The notes below the pieces were generated by a model. The model was given only the letters and a program-made list of their open reading frames with translations, was not told the origin of the DNA and made no database searches. Source: an uncultured Planctomycetota bacterium (GTDB taxonomy: Bacteria; Planctomycetota; Planctomycetia; Isosphaerales; Isosphaeraceae). From it: DNA of 64,000 bases. The stretch covers positions 128,001 through 192,000 of the forward strand of contig CAWJTV010000003.1 of assembly GCA_963845755.1 (NCBI GenBank), read 5' to 3'. The stretch's first letter is position 1, and the number at the start of each line of letters is the position of its first letter. This document shows, one piece after another, positions 22,700-34,195 of this stretch. The position numbers and the translations under genes were made by a program.

Positions 22700-24621
22700 T
22701 CACCGCGGGATCGCGGTCTCGGGCATCATGAGCAGGACACCCTCGTGTTGGAGGAGTTGGAGGTGCTGGAGGGCCTCCTTGATCGCGGCGACTCGACGCG
22801 GGTCGAGGTGGCGGAGGTACGGCAGGGCCAGGTCCACCAGCGAGGCCGGCTCGCCCCGGTTCGGACGGAATGCGTGAACGGCGATCCCGGGCGCGTCGTC
22901 CTTGGCCCCTGACGCATCCTCGAGGAGTTGCTCGAGGAAGTTCTTGGGTGCGGGGACAATCCGGACGTCGTAGTCGGTGAGTTTCGCCTGTCCGGCGACA
23001 TGAGCGATTGCGTCGCTGAGGCCGCCGATCTTGTCGACCAGGCCGAGCTCCAGGGCCTGCCGGCCGGTGAAGACGCGGCCGCCGGCCAGTTCATCGAGCG
23101 GCTTCTTGAGGCGGCTACCTCGGATCGAGCCGGCACGTGGCCTTTGAACACCTCGTAGACGTCGTCCATCCACGCCTGGACCCGCTGGCGCTCCGAATTC
23201 GTGAACGGGTCGCCGGAGGTCAACAAGCCGGCGTTCTCGCCCCGCTTGTAGGACTTGAACGTCACGCCGACCTTCTTCCACATGGCGCTGGTGGCCAGCT
23301 TGCCGCCCACGACGCCGATCGAGGCGGTGATCGTGGACTCGTCGGCGAAGATGACGTCCGAGGCGCAGGCGACGTAGTAGCCGCCGCTTCCGGCGACGTC
23401 GCCCATGGAGACGATGAAGGGCTTCTTGGCCTTCACGCGCTTGGTGGCGTCGAGGATGATCTCGCTGGCGACGGCCGACCCGCCGGGAGAATTGACGCGC
23501 AGGACTACGGCCTTGATGGAGGGATCCCGGGCCGCGTCGTCGAGCGCCTTGCGGACCTTCATGGAAGTGGCCCCGACCTCACCGAAGAGCGACGCCTGGC
23601 CGCCGCCCAGGGTGATCGGTCCCTCGACATGGACGATACCGACGGCGTTCTTGCTGGGGCCCTTCTTCTGACCCTGACCGAGGAGCTCACCCCAGAGCTT
23701 GAACATCGCGAAGGGTGAGGAGAGGTCGAGCGTGGGCTGCTGCTTCTGGCCGTACTTCTTGTCGAAGACGACGTCCGCGCCGTATTTCGATTTCAACATC
23801 GCCTCGAAGTCCTGGCGGTGCTCGATGTCGTCGATGAGCCCAGCCGTCCGGGCTTTCTCGGCGGTGTAGGGTCCGCCGTCGATCCACTTGCGGACCTGCG
23901 CCACCTCGACGTTCCGTCCGCGCGCGATCAGGGCGAGGGACGTCTCGAAAGTGCTGTCGAGCAGCCAGTTCTGCATCGCCTCGGCCTCGGGACTCGGGCC
24001 GTCGCGGAGGAACATCTCCGCGGCGCTCTTGTACGACCCGCAGGTGAGGAACTCCGGCCGGACGCCGAGCTTGTCGAGCAGGCCGCGCAGGTAGGGCGCC
24101 TCGCCGAAGAGCCCGACGATCCACAAGTCGGCGGTCGGGACCACGCTGAGCCGCGAGGCGCCGGAGAGGAGCACGTATTCTCGCATCGACAGGGAGTCGG
24201 CGTGGGCGTAGATCTCCTTGCCCGCGGCCCGGACCTTGGCCATGGCCTGGCGCAGCTCCTCGGCCTGGGCCATCCCGACCGAGCCCCCTTCGTGCAGGAA
24301 CACCACGGCCTTGACGATCGGGTCCTCACCGGCTTTCTTGATCCGGTCGAGTAGCTCGCGGAGCGAGGTGCCGCCGATCGCGCCGAAGGAGAACGTCTCA
24401 TCGGGGGGCAGTTCCGAGACATCCCCCGCGAGGCGGAAGACCGCGATCTTCGGCTTGGGAGGAGCCGGCTTCGCAGCCTCCTTATCCCCCTTGGCGGGAG
24501 TTCCCTTCGCCTGGACCGCCGGCTCGTCCCCGCGCACCGGGACGACTGGCCACGCAGCCAGATTCCCCATCAGGCCCGCCATCATCGCGAGTCGAAACGC
24601 CTTCCCCCGTCGCATCGTCAT
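22700..24621 (-). CDS. sppA: Signal peptide peptidase SppA (67K type), frameshift near 23130
   Basis: GSYKSAAE, VLRVNSPGGSAVASE, SMGDVAGSGGYYVA, TASIGV and GRVFTGRQALELGLVDKIGG. Confidence 0.92.
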
Positions 24622-26973: not shown

Positions 26974-27032
26974 GCCTAACGAAAAGTTCAGCGGCCCGCC
27001 GCAGGCGGACCCGCTGCAATGACGGGTTAGGC
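26974..27032 (-). repeat. attC 4
   Basis: GCCTAAC..TTGCAGCGGG..GCCGCTGAAC..GTTAGGC. Confidence 0.9.
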
Positions 27033-27341
27033 CGGATTCCCCTCAACAGCCCGGAACCGCAACACGAACTCACCGACCTGGAGCTCATCCCCATCCACGA
27101 GGCTGAACGGCAGGACGACCTCCCGACCATTCAGCCGCGTCTGGTATCCCCGCTTCAGCCGACAGCACTGCAGATAGCGACCCTGGCGAGGAATGAACAG
27201 CGCGTGGTGTTTGCCGACCGTCGGGCTGTGGAGGAAGACGGTACACGCACTACAGCGACCGAGGCTCACGAAGTCGTACTCACTCCGGAGCGGGAATACT
27301 CGCCCGGTGTTGTTCCCTCCGATGACCTCAAGCCACAGCAT
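27027..27341 (-). CDS. Cassette 4: FHA-domain protein (104 aa)
   Basis: LEVIGG..GRVFPL..LGR..C.V.L..PTVGKHHA..T.LNG..L.DGDELQVG; stop lies in R''. Confidence 0.75.
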   Translation of the reverse strand: MLWLEVIGGNNTGRVFPLRSEYDFVSLGRCSACTVFLHSPTVGKHHALFIPRQGRYLQCCRLKRGYQTRLNGREVVLPFSLVDGDELQVGEFVLRFRAVEGNPA

Positions 27342-27358
27342 AGCGACCACCTCGCTTG

Positions 27359-27418
27359 GCCTAACGAAAAAGCTCAGCGGCCCGCCGCAGGCGGGTCCGC
27401 TGGATCGACTTGTTAGCC
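27359..27418 (-). repeat. attC 3
   Basis: GGCTAAC..ATCCAGCGGAC..GCCGCTGAGC..GTTAGGC. Confidence 0.9.
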
Positions 27419-27831
27419 GCGCCCCTCTCTTTCGGTGTGCCGAAGATCTCGTAAAGGACGCGGTTGTCCAGTCGCCGCTCATCGTTCAGTTGCACGAATT
27501 CGGACCATGGCACCCGACGGCTGGGCGGGTGTCGCGGCTTATTCGAATCGTCGCCCCACCACCAGAGCAATGCGACCGATCCGACCGGGAAGATCGAGAG
27601 GAAGTAACCGACGAAGCGAAGCGGCACCAACCGAGCGGGGCCATCCTCACTCCCGTCAATCGATCCGCAACCGCAGCAACCGTTCGTTATGGAATAGTTC
27701 GGGAATTCGCCCACGCACCAGAGGGTGCCTTCTCCATTCGGAAGTCGGTACGCCGACTGGACCGGGAGTGCCAGGAAATCGGTGCCGGCGTCTTCTCTGA
27801 GCTTGACGGTAAGCTCTATGCAGTCGCACAT
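27361..27831 (-). CDS. Cassette 3: Cys-containing hypothetical protein (156 aa), directly after the intron 3' end
   Basis: ATG 27831 preceded by AGGA (MCDCIEL..NGCCGCG). The ORF reads through attC 3 to the TAG in R'. Confidence 0.6.
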   Translation of the reverse strand: MCDCIELTVKLREDAGTDFLALPVQSAYRLPNGEGTLWCVGEFPNYSITNGCCGCGSIDGSEDGPARLVPLRFVGYFLSIFPVGSVALLWWWGDDSNKPRHPPSRRVPWSEFVQLNDERRLDNRVLYEIFGTPKERGAANKSIQRTRLRRAAELFR

Positions 27832-27917
27832 ACGTCCTACGCCGGTCGGGTAAGGAGGTGAGGTTGCCCTCACCCCCTCCCCTCAGAACCGTACGTGCGC
27901 CTTGCGACGCATACGGC

Positions 27918-28924
27918 TCAAGCCTTCTCGAACGCCCCTCGCGGGACACAGCCCAGTCCGCCAGCCTTCCTCTTGCCGTGGATCTGCCGATGGCAGTGGG
28001 CGTGCAACAACTCCAAGTTGTCGTACGTCTCACCGCCGCCTCGATTGCGCCAGATCCGATGATGAATGTGCCAGGGTTCGTCTTCGGCCTGAAGAGGCTG
28101 CCCGCACATCACACATCGACCCCCTTGTCCCTTCCAGAGATACTCGATCCGGCCTCGACCTGCCAGGGTGTGCGTCAGCTTCCAGGCCGACCTCTCCTCC
28201 AGGTAGAGTTCCCACTCCGGATCGTAGGGGTTGGCCGCACTCCGGATCTTCCTCCACCGCAGGACCTTGACCCCGGCCGCTTTCATCAGCCGGATCCGTC
28301 GCGCCGAGCCCGTGCTGTCACGGATTGTGCCCGTGAAGACCCAGTCTCGGTGGCCCTCGCGCTGGAAGTATTTCCTCTTGATCCACTTCCAGTTCTTCTC
28401 GGGATGGCGTCGGCGACACCATCTCATCAGCTTCCGGAAGATCCGATCGTCCACCGCATGGAAGATGCGCTTACTGACCGCATAACGGTGGTACATGGTC
28501 CAGCCCTTGATCTGTTGATTCAGGCGCCGGATTAAGTCGCCCGCCGTCTTGCCGCCCGAGTCGTCGATCGTCGCCTGGATCTTGGCCAGGAACGTCTTGA
28601 TGCTCCGCTTCGATGGCTTGATCAAGACCTTGCCATTAGGGAAGCGTCGCACCGCCTGTCCCAGGAAATCGAAGCCGTCCTCAAGATGGGTGATCCTGGT
28701 CTTCTCGTGGGAGAGTTCGAGACCCCGCTTTCGTAAGAAGTGTTCCACGAGGGGCTGGACTTCACCTCGCAGGAGGACCCTTGATGTGCCGGTAATGATG
28801 AAGTCATCCGCATATCGGACCAGATGGACCTTGCCTCCCGCACGCCGTCGGCGTGTGTTGCTGAAGCGCCGCTCCAGCAACTCTTGCAACCCATCCAGGG
28901 CCCGGTTCGCCAGCGCGGGGGAGA
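27918..28924 (-). CDS. ltrA: Group II intron RT/maturase, C-terminal part (YADD, domain X, HNH endonuclease)
   Basis: SPALAN..LDGL, VRYADDFIIT, GLELSHEKT, GFDFLG, LNQQIKGW..YHR, ANPYDP and C..C..HIHH..NLELLHAHCHRQIH. Confidence 0.93.
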
Positions 28925-30946
28925 TCACGCCCCCAACAATGTTGCAAAACTGTCCCTGATCCCTGACTCTGTCATTTCCAGATCGCGGCTCCGACCGAAG
29001 TATGGGCAAGGATGGCAGCCCGGGCTCGATCCCCGTCCAAGGCAGGCTGACAGCCGCGGTCTTGGAGAGGATGAGTCAACATGATTACATCTCAACGGAG
29101 GTCAGCCCTGAGCCCTCCCGTCACCCGCCATTTCGAGTTCACCCGGTTTCAGGATGAGGTGATCGCGCTGGCATACCAGGCCTTGATCCCGGTCGTTTCT
29201 CGCCACCTGGAACGGTCGCGATCGCGATCTCACGACAACGAGCAGGCCACCACAACGATGCAGGGACTCCGATCAAAGGCCAGAGGAGCTTGACCAGCCA
29301 TGCTCAATCACGATCTCTGTGTGGGGACCTATGGCCGGGTCTCCGGGGACCAACAGTCCAAGGAGGACACGATCGCCAGCCAGCTTGAGGCGATCAGGCA
29401 GCGCGTCGCGAGCGACGGCTTGGTATGCTCCCCCGAGCTGTGCTTTGTGGACGATGGCTACACCGGGGATACCCTGGTCCGCCCGGGCCTCGAACGACTT
29501 CGGGACCAGGCCGCTGCTGGGACCATCGATCGCCTCTACATTCTCGATCCCGATCGACTTTCGCGCAAATATGCCTACCAGGTTTTGATACTCGAGGAAC
29601 TGGCCCGGTGCGGCGTTGAGGTCGTCTTCCTGCGCAATCCCCTGGGTCACGGACCCGAAGAGAACCTGCTTGTGCAGGTCCAGGGCATGATCGCTGAATA
29701 CGAGCGTGCCAAGATCATGGAGCGGTGTCGCCGAGGCAAGCAGTACGCCGCCCGCCACGGCTCGGTCAACGTGCTCAGCGGCGCGCCGTATGGCTACCGC
29801 TACATCGGCAAGCATGAGGGCGGCGGCGCGGCGCGTTATCAGGTCGTGGCCGACGAGGCGCGGATCGTGCGGAAGATCTTCGGGTGGGTCGGCCAGGAAC
29901 GATGCTCGATCGGTGAGGTTTGCCGACGTCTGCAACGCGACGGCGTCCCCACGCGGACGGGCAAATCGGCCTGGGACCGCTCGGTGATCTGGTCGTATCT
30001 CAGGAACCCTGCCTACAAGGGGACGGCCGGTTTCGGCAAGACACCACGCGGGCGCCCTCAAGCCGAAGCGGCTGCGCGCGCAACGCGGCCGTCCTGAGCA
30101 GCCCCGGCGTCCTGTCTCTCGGGTCGATACATCCACGCAAGAACAAATCTTCATCGATGTCCCCGGTTTGGTGAGCGAGGAACTCTTCGGGATGGTTCAA
30201 GCTCAAATCGAGGAGAACCGGCAACGCCGGCGCGAACGGCTCCGTGGCGACCGCTATCTCCTCCAGGGGTTAGTTGTCTGCAAACGGTGCGGCTACGGCT
30301 GCTACGGCAAGCCGGTGAGCCGGGCCTCGGCCAAGGGGAAGGTCCCCTACGCCTACTACCGCTGCACCGGCTCCGACGCCTATCGTTTCGGTGGCCAGCG
30401 ACTGTGTTGGAACAAGCAGGTCCGCACGGATGTCTTGGACGCCGCCGTCTGGGAAGATGTGCGTCATCTCTTGTCCGAGCCCGAACGGGTTCGAGTGGAG
30501 TACGAACGGCGGCTGCACGGGCCGGAGACAGGCCCAGACCGCGAGGTGAAGCATCTCAACAAATTGATTGCGAATCTAAAAAAGATGATCGCTCGATTGA
30601 TCGATGCCTACGGCGAGGGATTACTTAACAAGTCGGAGTTCGAGCCAAGGATCTTGGCAGCGCACGAGCGCCTGGCCAAACTGGAGGATGAGTGTCGGCA
30701 GCAGATTGACGAGGCCAACCAGGAAGCCGAACTGCGGCTGGTGATCGGCCAGTTGGAGGAGTTCGCGAGACGCGTTTCCCACGAGTTGCAAGAGCCGGAC
30801 TGGGCCACGCGACGGGCGATCGTTCGGGCTTTGGTGAAGAAGGTCGAGATCGACGAGCAGGAGGTCCGCATCGTGTATCGGATCAGTCCGTCCCCTTTTG
30901 AGGGAGGCCCCCAACAGGGTTCTTTGCAACATTGTTGGGGGCGTGA
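28925..30946 (+). mobile_element. Large-serine-recombinase element (2022 bp) interrupting the intron RT
   Basis: Perfect 24-bp inverted ends TCACGCCCCCAACAATGTTGCAAA (28925-28948 / 30923-30946), with GA at both junctions (28923-24 / 30945-46). Removing the element restores the RT. Confidence 0.92.
29081..29293 (+). CDS. Small hypothetical protein (70 aa) upstream of the recombinase
   Basis: GAGGA upstream of the ATG; ends 6 bp before the recombinase ATG and contains its RBS (GAGGAG). Confidence 0.6.
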   Translation: MITSQRRSALSPPVTRHFEFTRFQDEVIALAYQALIPVVSRHLERSRSRSHDNEQATTTMQGLRSKARGA

Positions 30947-31289
30947 CGATCCCCCCTTGAGGTGTGCCTTCCGTGGTGGCGAACAGGACGTGCTTCTCCA
31001 GGAACCCGGCCTTCAGCCACTTCCGGAGCACCTCCTTGTCCATGGGGATATGGTCGATCAACCAACGATGGCTGATCCGATCAAAGCAGGCTTTGATATC
31101 CCCCTCCAAGATCCAGCTCGGACCGGGCGGACCCCTGAGGATCTTGTGACACTCATCCAGGGCATCGGCACAGCAGCGTTCCAGTCGAAAGCCGTAGGAA
31201 TGGCCGTCGGCGAGGGACTCTGCGATGGGATCGAGGCCCAGCAGGTAGAGGGCCTGCATGGCTCGATCGGCCATGGTAGGAATCCCTAA
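29300..31289 (+). CDS. Large serine recombinase; frameshift near 30045; reads past the element end at 30946
   Basis: Catalytic YGRVS..Q, DDGYTG..RPGL, DRLSR; recombinase domain (APYGY); Zn ribbon LLQGLVVCKRCG..YYRC; coiled coil; RRAIVRALVKKVEI. Confidence 0.9.
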
Positions 31290-31660
31290 ACCACGTCGCT
31301 GGCCGTTGCTCTTGGGAATGTAAACCCTGCGGAGCGGTTGCGGCCGATAGCCGTGCCGACGCAGGGTGCTGAAGGCCGCCGACTTGACCTCCGGCGTGTT
31401 CCAGAGGATTCCGTCCACGCCGGGGGTCCGCGCACCCGAATTACTGACGACTCGCAAGATGGCCAGAGCCCGGCCACTGTACGAGTGGGTGAGCAGGTAG
31501 ACCAGGGCTTTGGCTTTGTTCCACCTGCCCTCCCGGACTGCCTTTACGATACGCGCTGGAGCCGACGGACCGTGCGCCAGACTTTCTTCCAGGAAATGGA
31601 ATTCCAGTCGGGCGCATGGCCGGGGACCGCACCAACAGGCGTTGCCGCCTGTGCCTTATC
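30947..31660 (-). CDS. ltrA: Group II intron RT/maturase, N-terminal part (start approximate; 1-bp frameshift near 31557)
   Basis: WNSISWKKV..VRRLQ/ARIVKA, TPGVDG, RRVYIPKSNG..RGLGIPTMADRAMQ, SYGFR, WILEGDIKACFD, WLKAG and GTPQGGIV. Confidence 0.92.
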
Positions 31661-32277
31661 TGCTTTGCCCCCTGAGTCAGTTGGCCGAGGTTCTCTCGTA
31701 ACGGAAGACCCGGGGGAAGTCGGCTCCCTTTCGGGCGGGGTGATGTCGCCTGTCGGCTCAACCCCTATCCGACCGGTTAGTGGCCGGCGTTCGCTTCCTC
31801 CCTCGTCCTGTACCCGCCGCCCCATGGGCTCCTCTTGCGAGTCGCCTACCCTCGCGGGGAGGACGACGGGCTTACCACGTTCCGACGATGTGCCAAGGTG
31901 GGGAGGGTCGCCGCTCTTCGCCGGTGGTACGGCATCTGCGCCGGGGAGTTAGGAGCCCCCGGACCTGACCACGTGCCCTTTTGGCCCAAGCGTGACAGCA
32001 TCTTCCGCTTGTTCTCAGTAACGACGTTTATCGCGGCTTCACTTTACGTTAACCCGTCCACCCGATCCTGGTCCCCGACCGCGTTGATGCTGGCAGTCGC
32101 GGCGTCGGCTGGCGCTCCGGCCGCCCTCCCGAGGGAGGAGGATACGTTGTGCCGGGGGCTTGGCACCCCTCCGTTGCCGGAGGCGCACTCCCCGGTGGGA
32201 TACTGCTGGCAGAACAGCAGGTGCTGTCGCCCTCTCCGAGGTCGCAGCACAGTCACATCGGCGACTTCGTGTCGCAC

Positions 32278-32335
32278 CCTAACGCCAAGATCAGCGGCCC
32301 GCCGCAGGCGGGTCCGCTGCATCGCATGGTTAGCC
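32278..32335 (-). repeat. attC 2 (intron target)
   Basis: GGCTAAC..GATGCAGCGGAC..GCCGCTGATC TTGGC GTTAGG|intron. Confidence 0.92.
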
Positions 32336-32716
32336 CACGCCACCCGATGGCGTCGATGTTGGCCGGCCTGAATTAAAGCGGGGCCATTCGTCTTCCGGGA
32401 GCAGGCTGTCGCCATCCTGCATACGGAACACACCCGGCCTTGACGCCGTCGGATTCCAGCCTCGACGCAGCCCTTCGAGTATCGCCAGGCGCACTACACA
32501 CGGCAGTATGAGGCGGTGCCCGGCTGACGTAAAGGCCCCGCCGCCAACAGGCACCCAATCGTCGTGGTACTCGAAGCCGACCCAGAGCAATTGCCTCCGG
32601 GAACCTTCCGGCCTCGCGATGAGGGCGATGAAGCCATCGTCGGGCGATACGCGATAGCGGTAGACCACTCCATCGATGGTGATGCGGCGTCGGCTATCCT
32701 TACGGGAACGTCCCAT
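32330..32716 (-). CDS. Cassette 2: hypothetical protein (128 aa)
   Basis: RRITIDGVVYRYRV..ILPCVVRLAILEGLRRGWNP; stop lies in R''. Confidence 0.7.
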   Translation of the reverse strand: MGRSRKDSRRRITIDGVVYRYRVSPDDGFIALIARPEGSRRQLLWVGFEYHDDWVPVGGGAFTSAGHRLILPCVVRLAILEGLRRGWNPTASRPGVFRMQDGDSLLPEDEWPRFNSGRPTSTPSGGVG

Positions 32717-32735
32717 CGGTGCCCTCGCCCTCGCC

Positions 32736-32793
32736 GGCTAACGCCCAAGATCAGCGGCCCGCGGAGCGGGTCCGCTGCATCGCTTTGTTAGAC
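32736..32793 (-). repeat. attC 1
   Basis: GTCTAAC..GATGCAGCGGAC..GCCGCTGATC..GTTAGCC. Confidence 0.92.
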
Positions 32794-32797
32794 AAAG

Positions 32798-33064
32798 CTA
32801 TCCCCTGAACGCGTTGCGTACGGCGACGATCCCGTAGATCCAGCCCCCGGCGACGAACGGTAGTGCGATGCCTTCGACGAACCAAGGCCACGGCCGCTTG
32901 GAGATCTTCTGGATCGACCAGAGCAAGGCTCCTCCGAGAACGAAGAACAGGCACGCCACCCGCAACTTCGTGGCCCACTGAGGATCACCGCGGTTCGCGT
33001 AGCGCGAGGCCAGCCCGACCGACCACGCGACCACGAATAGAGAAGATCGGGTAGCCGACCGCAT
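32798..33064 (-). CDS. Cassette 1: small membrane protein (88 aa)
   Basis: GGAGG RBS; 2-3 hydrophobic segments. Confidence 0.65.
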   Translation of the reverse strand: MRSATRSSLFVVAWSVGLASRYANRGDPQWATKLRVACLFFVLGGALLWSIQKISKRPWPWFVEGIALPFVAGGWIYGIVAVRNAFRG

Positions 33065-33084
33065 AGCGTCGCCTCCGCACTGCC

Positions 33085-33105
33085 GCCTAACCATTGTTTC
33101 GAAGC
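33085..33105 (-). other. attI site
   Basis: Lone core GAAACAATG-GTTAGGC with no attC hairpin, between intI and the first cassette. Confidence 0.75.
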
Positions 33106-33162
33106 CCACAGGGGCGTCTTTTTTTCCGCCCTCACGGGCGTATAATCCCGATCGTGAGATTG

Positions 33163-33191
33163 ATTATGATCGAGAAAGACTGCATTTGCAA
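33163..33191 (-). promoter_or_regulatory. Candidate cassette promoter Pc
   Basis: TTGCAA-17 bp-CATAAT pointing into attI. A TATAAT on the + strand (33141-33146) may serve intI. Confidence 0.55.
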
Positions 33192-33202
33192 CAAGAACGT
33201 CT

Positions 33203-34195
33203 ATGGATTATCCCGACCAAACGCGATCAGGAAAGACGCCCAGGTTGCTCGATCGAGTCCGCGAAGCCATCCGGAGATTGCATTACAGCATTCGCACGGA
33301 GACGGCCTACGTCCAGTGGATCAAGCGGTTCATCCTCTTTCATGGCAAGCGGCATCCTCTCGAGATGGGCGAACGCGAGGTCGAAGCCTTCCTCAGCCAT
33401 TTGGCGGTCGAGGGAAACGTCGCGGCCTCGACGCAGAATCAGGCGATGAGTGCCTTGCTGTTCCTCTACAAGATCGTGCTGGATCGCCCTCTGCGCGGTC
33501 GCATCGACGCCTTGAGGGCCAAGCGGCCGGAACGGCTCCCCGTCGTCCTCACACGTACCGAGGTCCGCGCGATCCTGGCCCAGCTCGATGGCGACAAGCA
33601 TCTCATGGCGAGCTTGTTGTACGGCTCCGGGCTGAGGCTGATGGAGTGCCTCCGCCTCAGGATCAAGGACGTCGATTTCGGGCAAAATCACATCCTCGTC
33701 CGTGACGGCAAGGGGCAGAAAGACCGGGTGACCCTCCTTCCCCGCTCGCTGATCGAACCGTTGAAGAGCCGGATTGCGATCGTCCGCCGTCTGCATGAAC
33801 GCGACCTTAGTGAGGGATTCGGCCGGGTCTATCTCCCGCACGCTCTGGCGGAGAAATACCCAAACGCCGATCGTGAGCCCGGCTGGCAATACCTGTTCCC
33901 CGCACCACAGCGATCGCTCGATCCTCGAACCGACATCCCGCGGCGACACCATCTGGCCGAGACCGCCTTGCAGAAGGCCATCCGTGGCGCCGTCCGCCGT
34001 GCCGGGATCGTCAAGCCGGCCAGTTGCCACACGTTTCGCCATAGCTTCGCCACACACTTGCTCGAGGCCGGTCAGGACATTCGCACGGTCCAGGTGCTTC
34101 TCGGTCACAAAGATGTCGCCACGACGATGATCTACACCCATGTCCTGAACCAAGGTCCCCTCGGCGTCCGCAGCCCCATCGACTTCCTCAACTAG
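33203..34195 (+). CDS. intI: Integron integrase
   Basis: [37 protein letters not shown], integron-specific insert ([24 protein letters not shown]), [12 protein letters not shown] and LLGH..TTMIYTH. Confidence 0.97.

Follow-up and report, generated by a model that had tools for sequence, protein, structure and literature searches.

A group II intron at an integron attC site, interrupted by a serine recombinase element: probable footprint of two site-specific parasites in an uncultured Planctomycetota bacterium

In the present study, a 64,000-nucleotide stretch of DNA from an uncultured Planctomycetota bacterium (Isosphaeraceae; assembly GCA_963845755.1, contig CAWJTV010000003.1, 128001-192000), called the window throughout, was analysed. 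The third gene cassette of an integron in this window was found to contain a group II intron, and the reverse transcriptase (RT) gene of the intron is in turn split by a small element encoding a large serine recombinase (LSR). This nesting is most probably the footprint of two independent site-specific parasites stacked on the integron. Since both inner layers are site-specific, the nesting can be explained without invoking any function. Our study establishes the anatomy of the three layers, the target specificity of both parasites and the presence of intact sister copies in the same genome. The triple nesting is new, and the kind of intron involved has one published precedent, UHB.I2.

A preliminary description of this DNA had claimed a three-level arrangement of cassette, intron and recombinase element, and reading of the sequence confirmed it, with all its numbers, to the base. 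The intron lies 5 nt past the G/TT crossover of the site attC2 and its first G makes the R' box GTTAGGG, which is also the natural R' of attC5. Cassette 3 measures 4918 bp instead of 485 bp (intron, 4433 bp; remainder, 485 bp), and the intron ends 13 nt before the ATG of the cassette. The features at this level are as follows.

27365..32282, minus strand: cassette 3 in its present form, 4918 bp, from the TT of the attC2 R' box to the G of the attC3 R' box
32277..32336, minus strand: attC2, from R'' GGCTAAC to R' GTTAGG plus the intron's G (nhmmer, E = 2.1e-14)
27359..27418, minus strand: attC3, R' GTTAGGC (nhmmer, E = 6.2e-14; fold computed)
27361..27831, minus strand: cassette-3 open reading frame (ORF), 156 aa, no Pfam family (ORF list and sequence)

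On the minus strand the R' bases GTTAGG of attC2 are found at 32283-32278, and the following G at 32277 is base 1 of the intron. The ATG of cassette 3 (27831-27829) is preceded at 5 nt by AGGA, which lies in the 3' exon of the intron. The cassette-3 ORF runs through attC3 and stops at a TAG in its R' box (27361-27365), the TAA of the R'' box (27413-27415) being out of frame.

The second layer has the features of a group II intron, namely ribozyme domains, a 5' GUGYG start and an RT/maturase gene in domain IV, which is split here. Its parts are given below.

27845..32277, minus strand: group II intron with IIB-type RNA and chloroplast-like (CL) intron-encoded protein (IEP), 4433 bp including the inner element (Rfam RF02012, RF00029)
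32071..32221, minus strand: group II D1-D4, match to RF02012, 100.8 bits
32159..32163, minus strand: candidate exon-binding site 2 (EBS2), CCAAG, pairing with CTTGG upstream of R' (complementarity only)
31948..31953, minus strand: EBS1, CCTAAC, pairing with intron-binding site 1 (IBS1), GTTAGG, the R' core (covariation in relatives)
30947..31457, minus strand: 5' part of the split RT gene, end of RVT_N and RVT_1 profile 1-127 (Pfam); TIGR04416 positions 10-188
27918..28924, minus strand: 3' part of the split RT gene, RVT_1 profile 121-204, maturase GIIM and HNH endonuclease (Pfam)
27845..27921, minus strand: intron domains V and VI, RF00029, 61.8 bits, full model 1-77

Without the insert, the intron of the window measures 2411 bp. 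Its 5' end GTGCGAC (GTGCG at 32277-32273) and its 3' end CCCGAC (27845) are common to the six sister copies. The frame upstream of the 5' RT part (30947-31457) is also shifted in comparison to the intact copies. In an intact sister copy the IEP comprises RVT_N, RVT_1 (profile 1-204), GIIM and HNH, and its best relative of solved structure is 6me0_C (602 bits), from the T.el4h IIB intron; LtrA and IIC RT chains scored 105-136 bits. From this ranking against solved structures, the intron is provisionally assigned to the chloroplast-like/IIB class. The recognition of the 5' exon by an EBS1 of about 6 nt and an EBS2, the latter read from complementarity, is also as in CL/IIB introns. An assignment to class C was rejected because of the HNH endonuclease domain and the ranking against solved structures; in the account of PMC4424553, introns of classes C, D, E and F all lack the endonuclease (En) domain.

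The third layer was identified as an LSR element of the following composition.

28925..30946, plus strand: inner LSR element, 2022 bp (2-nt ambiguity), delimited by the empty site in five uninterrupted intron copies
28925..28948, no strand: left terminal inverted repeat, 24 nt, 100% complementary to 30923-30946
30923..30946, no strand: right terminal inverted repeat, 24 nt, perfect complement of the left end
29081..29293, plus strand: small 70-aa ORF upstream of the recombinase gene, no Pfam match, conserved in relatives
29300..30946, plus strand: large serine recombinase gene, in two frames as assembled (29300-30097, and 30168 onwards)

The recombinase has the full domain set of a large serine recombinase, with a resolvase catalytic domain (PF00239, 94.8 bits) and a recombinase domain (PF07508, 45.1 bits) in the first ORF and a zinc ribbon (PF13408 Zn_ribbon_recom, 42.7 bits) in the second; the serine motif YGRVSGDQQ is read in the translation. 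Identity with the XisF or Ccr equivalogs was rejected, as the scores for XisF (58 + 43 bits, cut-off 375) and CcrB (60 bits, cut-off 900) are far below the cut-offs. The 70-aa ORF is conserved as a protein in 24 related loci at 51-80% identity.

The element splits RVT_1 at about profile position 121-127 of 205. Uninterrupted sister introns read ...GGGATCG/TCTCC... (P-Q-G-G-I-V/S-P) at the place where the window has 2022 extra bases. As only TC (GA on the plus strand) is common to the empty site and both junctions, the crossover was placed at TC without target duplication, which fits a serine recombinase. The joined ends of the element would form a 48-bp perfect palindrome. A crossover at the central AT of this palindrome was also considered and rejected, because the junctions it predicts disagree with those observed. 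If the element were excised precisely at TC, the RT frame would be whole again at the insertion break. A soil-metagenome short-read contig skips exactly these 2022 bases (joint from 28922 to 30945, with 2 shared letters); such a contig can derive from sister introns that were never interrupted, so it is no test of excision.

No stop codon is found for the recombinase frame inside the element. Across the joined ends the frame gains 52 codons through the left end (28926-29081) and terminates at a TGA overlapping the ATG of the 70-aa ORF, and hence the full-length recombinase would be encoded only by the excised circle. The protein sequence of this tail is conserved even in relatives as distant as 38-58% identity, and stops are found in both other frames.

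Six copies of the LSR element are present in the genome, that of the window and five others at 94.9-99.7% identity (four at 98-99.7%, the fifth at 94.9%). They lie in at least four different RT genes and in both orientations: the attC intron twice, in opposite orientations, its 80% relative (contigs 16 and 24) and another RT gene (contig 22). On contig 6 (30437-35454) a copy has the N-terminal half of an RT gene on each side, the two halves belonging to different genes and pointing toward each other, an arrangement that looks like the result of an inversion between two copies of opposite orientation. A second recombinase family, with about 66-67% DNA identity to the element of the window and similar ends, has at least six copies (contigs 11, 13, 18, 20 and 42).

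The same targeting is seen outside this genome. A protein search with the recombinase returned 7731 matches; the 120 listed matches are 74-100% identical and 438-831 aa long, a variation as expected if the recombinase frame reads into the flank. The family survey covered the best 80 loci from named genomes, out of 562 confirmed matches, and the two halves of RT block 4 were sought at the predicted element ends. At 32 of the 80 loci the RT motif was split collinearly, 17 on the recombinase strand and 15 on the opposite strand; four loci have both halves in non-collinear arrangement and 13 have one half. The four non-collinear loci (L012, L017, L029 and L063) have the same kind of flanks as the contig 6 copy. 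The RT motif occurs in 83 of 144 end windows, in comparison to 1 of 133 windows shifted outward by 500 nt and 0 of 158 shifted inward by the same distance. The 32 split-motif loci come from records of Planctomycetota, Chloroflexota, Acidobacteriota and Pseudomonadota. On the TOL plasmid pWW53 of Pseudomonas putida (NC_008275.1, 76320-82672), a 47% relative of the recombinase is flanked by the halves of RT block 4; this split was seen by a motif scan of the DNA, the gene table, which omits pseudogenes, having only recombinase fragments there. The element of the window fits the traits of this family, i.e. a length of about 2 kb, terminal inverted repeats, insertion in the RT block-4 codons (PQG-x-x/SP) and a frame complete only across the joined ends. 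As judged from these loci, the LSR element family specialises in the block-4 motif of group II intron RT genes. No description of a serine recombinase element targeting RT genes was found in the full-text literature outside subscription journals.

The specificity of the intron was read from its other copies. Seven copies at 98-100% identity are present in the genome, five of them uninterrupted (2412-2415 bp) and two with the inner element. They occupy six attC sites, always in cassette-sense orientation and before C, after GTTAGG at five sites and GTTAGA at one; one of the six holds a tandem pair. In this pair (contig 47, 13544-20386) two attC introns follow each other head to tail without an intervening exon, the upstream one uninterrupted and the downstream one carrying the LSR element in the orientation opposite to that of the window. 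The tandem fits a second homing event into GTTAGG/G at the 5' junction of a resident intron. A seventh attC in this genome carries, at the same base, a relative of the intron (77-79% identity). A genome of the same genus (G001) has a matching intron relative after GTTAGC of an attC, again at the same base, and a truncated 89% copy after GTTAGG of an attC-like site; a third copy (89%) lies outside attC, where its EBS1 pairs imperfectly with the exon. On contig 4 of G001 (232803-235961) the intron behind the attC-like site ends after about 158 nt and another attC follows directly. A before/after pair is also available, as the cassette behind the intron at C41:27937 (contig 41) recurs at C18:79075 (contig 18; 100%, 396 nt) with an attC ending GTTAGA and no intron.

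The pairing of EBS1 with the exon is supported by covariation. The 80% relative, which targets ...TCGATG, carries the loop CATCGA, and the G001 copy behind GTTAGC carries GCTCAC, with 5/6 pairs and the first base changing with the exon. As for EBS2, the motif CTTGG lies one or two bases upstream of R' and the loop is absent from the relative that targets another site; the candidate EBS2 is less well supported than EBS1. A sister intron family (76-81% identical; contigs 13, 45, 38, 14, 43 and 24) has a non-attC target and a matching EBS1. Its target ends in ...CCGCACT(T/C)T(T/C)GA(T/A)G, and two contig-end loci of this family (contigs 16 and 24) carry the LSR element.

The following course of events can be proposed. 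A sedentary chromosomal integron with an intact integrase and eight minus-strand cassettes forms the first layer. The intron RNA would then reverse-splice into the cassette sense strand of an attC, after GTTAGG and before C, EBS1 pairing with the R' core and EBS2 probably with CTTGG just upstream. The intron would thus become the 5' leader of the next cassette and be co-transcribed with it. Finally, the 2022-bp element would integrate by conservative recombination at TC in the RT block-4 codons (PQGG-I-V/S-P).

The first layer has an IntI-type tyrosine recombinase, an array of attC hairpin sites and an attI with a GTT core, as expected for an integron. Its remaining features are given below.

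33203..34195, plus strand: intI integron integrase, 330 aa (TIGR02249, Phage_integrase, SAM_4)
33163..33191, minus strand: promoter-like site directed toward the array, candidate Pc, TTGCAA-17-CATAAT, 9/12 matches
33085..33091, minus strand: attI core GTTAGGC, start of cassette 1 (read from sequence)

A profile search with TIGR02249 gave 485.2 bits for intI (cut-off 265; profile 1-314/315 aligned), and by tblastn it is the sole full-length intI in the genome. The cassette array is divergent from intI, its cassettes running leftwards on the minus strand. A profile scan with nhmmer located eight attC sites at 24.7-32.8 kb on this strand, with spacings of 460, 4918, 385, 302, 772, 646 and 530 bp, of which 4918 is the step across the intron. 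The attC profile was built from eight sites of the same genome, six occupied by the intron and two unoccupied, and gave 98 matches genome-wide, including the eight of the window. By Pfam scan the cassette ORFs are without family, except for an FHA domain in cassette 4. The candidate Pc is the only promoter-like match in 27000-33400, which is at chance level (shuffled sequence averages 1.0).

Five further arrays with the same attC type are found on contigs 39, 41, 18, 47 and 34. Contig 39 has a 55% relative of intI in two pieces; on contigs 41, 18 and 47 only about 77 N-terminal intI codons are found, at the array ends. The arrays on contigs 18, 39 and 41 have cassettes in common (97-100% identical) that stand in different surroundings, which fits shuffling but could also reflect strain variants binned together. 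One cassette (97.5-100% identical) is present in all three (C41:27537-27936, C18:79075-79470 and C39:450208-450603) next to different neighbours, preceded by the intron in one array but not in the other two.

The preliminary description had also held that the insertion leaves attC2 usable. Part of this claim stands: the intron sits outside the R''-R' stem, so the hairpin survives, and the bottom strand including the intron's G folds at -17.6 kcal/mol, the parsed neighbours ranging from -11.9 to -20.1 kcal/mol. Usability itself may be retained, although pairing of the R box is reduced. Among the eight attC sites of the array, seven folds could be parsed and six of these have paired R''/R' boxes, the minimum-energy fold of attC1 being an inner stem only. 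The R boxes of attC1, 3, 5, 6 and 7 pair at 6/7 positions (attC6 including one G-T wobble) and that of attC4 at 7/7. In a census of R' boxes, 71 of the 98 genome profile matches could be parsed (7 occupied, 64 unoccupied). Of the unoccupied sites, 49 have C as the seventh R' base, 7 have G, 4 have T and 4 have A, so that 15/64 differ from C, and by this count the intron's G in attC2 lies within natural attC variation. Hence it is plausible that attC2 still recombines and that the 4.9-kb unit can move as one cassette. No sequence trace of an intron-bearing cassette moved by IntI was seen, none being found at two places in the genome, and neither a second nor an empty-site copy of cassette 3 exists in this genome or in G001, where only the attC part matched.

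Group II introns specific for attC have been described earlier. The IIC-attC introns (S.ma.I2 of Serratia marcescens and relatives) are described in PMC3001079 and PMC7923331 as homing to attC inside cassette arrays and as able to affect downstream cassette expression; in the same accounts they use the bottom-strand attC hairpin and an IBS1 of 3-4 nt and insert antisense at R'' (TTGT/T). The intron of the window resembles them in its specificity for integron attC and its position in a cassette array. On the other hand, IIC-attC introns belong to class C, have no En domain and separate a gene from its attC through antisense insertion at R'' TTGT/T, whereas the present intron has an HNH domain, a 6-nt EBS1 with an EBS2, and a top-strand target at R' GTTAGG/C in sense orientation at all six occupied sites, which leaves the hairpin whole. 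It is thus not a member of the IIC-attC group.

The closer relative is UHB.I2, a IIB1/CL1 intron from a soda-lake metagenome integron, inserted cassette-sense directly downstream of an attC (Sonbol and Siam 2021, PMC7923331). It has cassette orientation and an adjoining upstream attC in common with the intron of the window, which is probably of the same kind (IIB RNA, CL-type IEP). UHB.I2 is a single metagenomic copy with unusual boundaries (UUGCG..GU), and its authors saw no conservation of the flanking exons. Here, in contrast, seven copies occupy six attC sites with base-exact insertion and EBS1-IBS1 complementarity to the R' core, and relatives occupy a seventh attC and a sister genome.

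The inner element may be compared with the clostridial transposons Tn4451/Tn4453 (TnpX) and Tn5397 (TndX), whose sole mobility enzyme is a large serine recombinase and which excise as circles with a GA (=TC) crossover. The domain set is the same and so is the inferred TC/GA crossover. However, those transposons are 6-21 kb long, carry resistance or conjugation genes and are not known to have long perfect inverted ends, whereas the element of the window is 2.0 kb long, has only the 70-aa ORF and the recombinase, perfect 24-nt ends and a 48-bp palindromic junction, completes its recombinase frame across the joined ends and targets one RT motif of group II introns. In twintrons, as described in PMC4424553, a mobile element homes into a mobile intron and the function of the outer element depends on removal of the inner one. 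The present inner element differs in being a serine-recombinase DNA element, which would be removed at the DNA level, and in lying in the coding loop of domain IV with the ribozyme core untouched. Another mobile family specialised on attC consists of the IS1111-attC insertion sequences (ISPa21, ISPst6; PMC3001079). These DDE-type elements insert antisense close to the 5' end of attC, make no use of base pairing with R' and are no retroelements.

Several observations weigh against the reading of two stacked parasites. In comparison to the intact copies, the intron of the window lacks one base of the stem below EBS1 (near 31943) and one of the IEP frame (near 31557), and if these losses are real it may be dead as well as interrupted. 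All six LSR copies carry different frameshifts in the assembly, which are either signs of a decaying element or assembly indel errors. The inferred TC crossover is one base off the dyad axis of the joined-end palindrome. In the family survey, the RT motif is missing from the ends of 31 of the 80 related loci. With the intron's G, attC2 has only 5/7 positions of its R box paired, the exact box GTTAGGG occurs in just 1 of the 64 unoccupied attCs, and the attC census may be biased, as its profile was seeded mostly with occupied sites. Finally, contigs from four soil-metagenome runs cover only the repeated intron and element, with zero depth over cassette 3 (27322-27743). A 459-bp skip in metagenome contigs (32278 to 32738) looks like another intron copy behind a similar attC. 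Among 20 public sequencing runs the best contained 0.48 of the sampled words of the window, none reaching half, and the share in the one RNA run was 0.05.

Some of these points would suit an inert wreck, in which the intron copy is dead, attC2 is weakened, no mobility operates here and the insert insulates or silences the distal cassettes of a mostly silent array. The split RT gene, the two intron deletions, the LSR frame shifted at 30044, the weak pairing of the attC2 R box and the absence of any duplicate of cassette 3 would all agree with it. Against this, errors of assembly may account for many of the indels. Beside the array, the gene of an S49 peptidase (22700-24621, minus strand) is split in two frames (profile 2-107 and 111-153), and since this gene is also frameshifted, assembly indel errors are suspected and the other frameshifts are doubtful. 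By hand reading, a short-read metagenome contig lacks one base at 30046, and the recombinase frame is then continuous. For these reasons the recombinase was not classified as a pseudogene. Moreover, identities of 99.6-99.8% between the intron and copies with intact reading frames, and of 94.9-99.7% between the element and its other copies, point to very recent activity, and the wreck is considered unlikely.

The preliminary description had further proposed a gating chain, in which expression of cassettes 3-8 may need splicing, splicing needs the maturase and the maturase needs LSR excision or a source in trans. In its strict form, the recombinase would act as a master switch for the distal array. 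The intron is indeed co-oriented with cassettes 3-8 and lies between them and the candidate Pc, its own IEP gene is split, and precise excision at TC would restore the frame at the break. An antisense IIC-attC intron is also stated to impede transcription from Pc (PMC3001079). However, the intact copies which might act in trans do exist: three introns have 687-aa RT/maturase/HNH reading frames, with DNA 99.6-99.8% identical to the intron of the window. Because maturase can be supplied in trans by these copies, the claimed dependence on LSR excision falls away, and the window intron RNA could still be spliced. Nor does any reading frame depend on splicing, because the intron lies in the 5' leader, with the AGGA and ATG of cassette 3 in the 3' exon. 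Within the intron, the minus strand gave no terminator-like site; the promoter and terminator scan used E. coli-type consensus sequences and is weak evidence either way. As assembled, LSR excision alone would also be insufficient, leaving one further IEP frameshift from a single-base deletion. The nesting itself is accounted for by the target specificity of the parasites, which recurs in unrelated contexts. The chain is thus considerably weakened and appears rather improbable; an effect on cassettes 3-8 is possible only through transcript length or structure.

The sense orientation implies that the intron is transcribed with the cassettes, and such co-transcription may be the reason why it has multiplied to seven copies. 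In comparison, PMC3001079 reports that S.ma.I2, an antisense IIC-attC intron, is not transcribed.

A more elaborate three-tier control chain can also be imagined, and is given very little probability. A reversible LSR would switch introns between RT-dead and RT-live states, splicing would condition the distal Pc transcript, IntI would carry the 4.9-kb package to new arrays, and the circle-only recombinase would make the switch directional. Each enzyme would then target the core of the tier below, the intron the attC R' core and the LSR the RT block-4 codons. An assembly artefact, i.e. a chimera from collapsed intron and element repeats, might be suspected in a 14.3-Mb assembly of 49 contigs (completeness 87.9%, contamination 3.3%) with many near-identical repeats and signs of indel errors, but it is hardly credible, as both junctions of each layer lie in one 228-kb contig with unique cassettes on either side, a second element-bearing intron copy of opposite orientation is present on another contig, and the element-in-RT arrangement recurs in 32 of 80 loci outside this genome, with finished genomes and plasmid pWW53 among the sources.

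Genome engineering makes use of integrons, of group II introns and of serine recombinases, and the three are studied as separate mobility systems; here they are stacked. The natural targeting rules of the two inner parasites are unusually clean: RNA-DNA pairing on the sense strand lets the intron read the attC core, and the serine recombinase recognises DNA coding for a near-universal RT motif. The recombinase is thereby a hyperparasite that exploits retroelements of at least four phyla. As a natural reservoir, the recombinase family offers integrases whose target is defined and conserved and whose attachment site is fully palindromic. If the intron-bearing attC still recombines, introns together with their parasites could be carried by integrons from array to array and from host to host.

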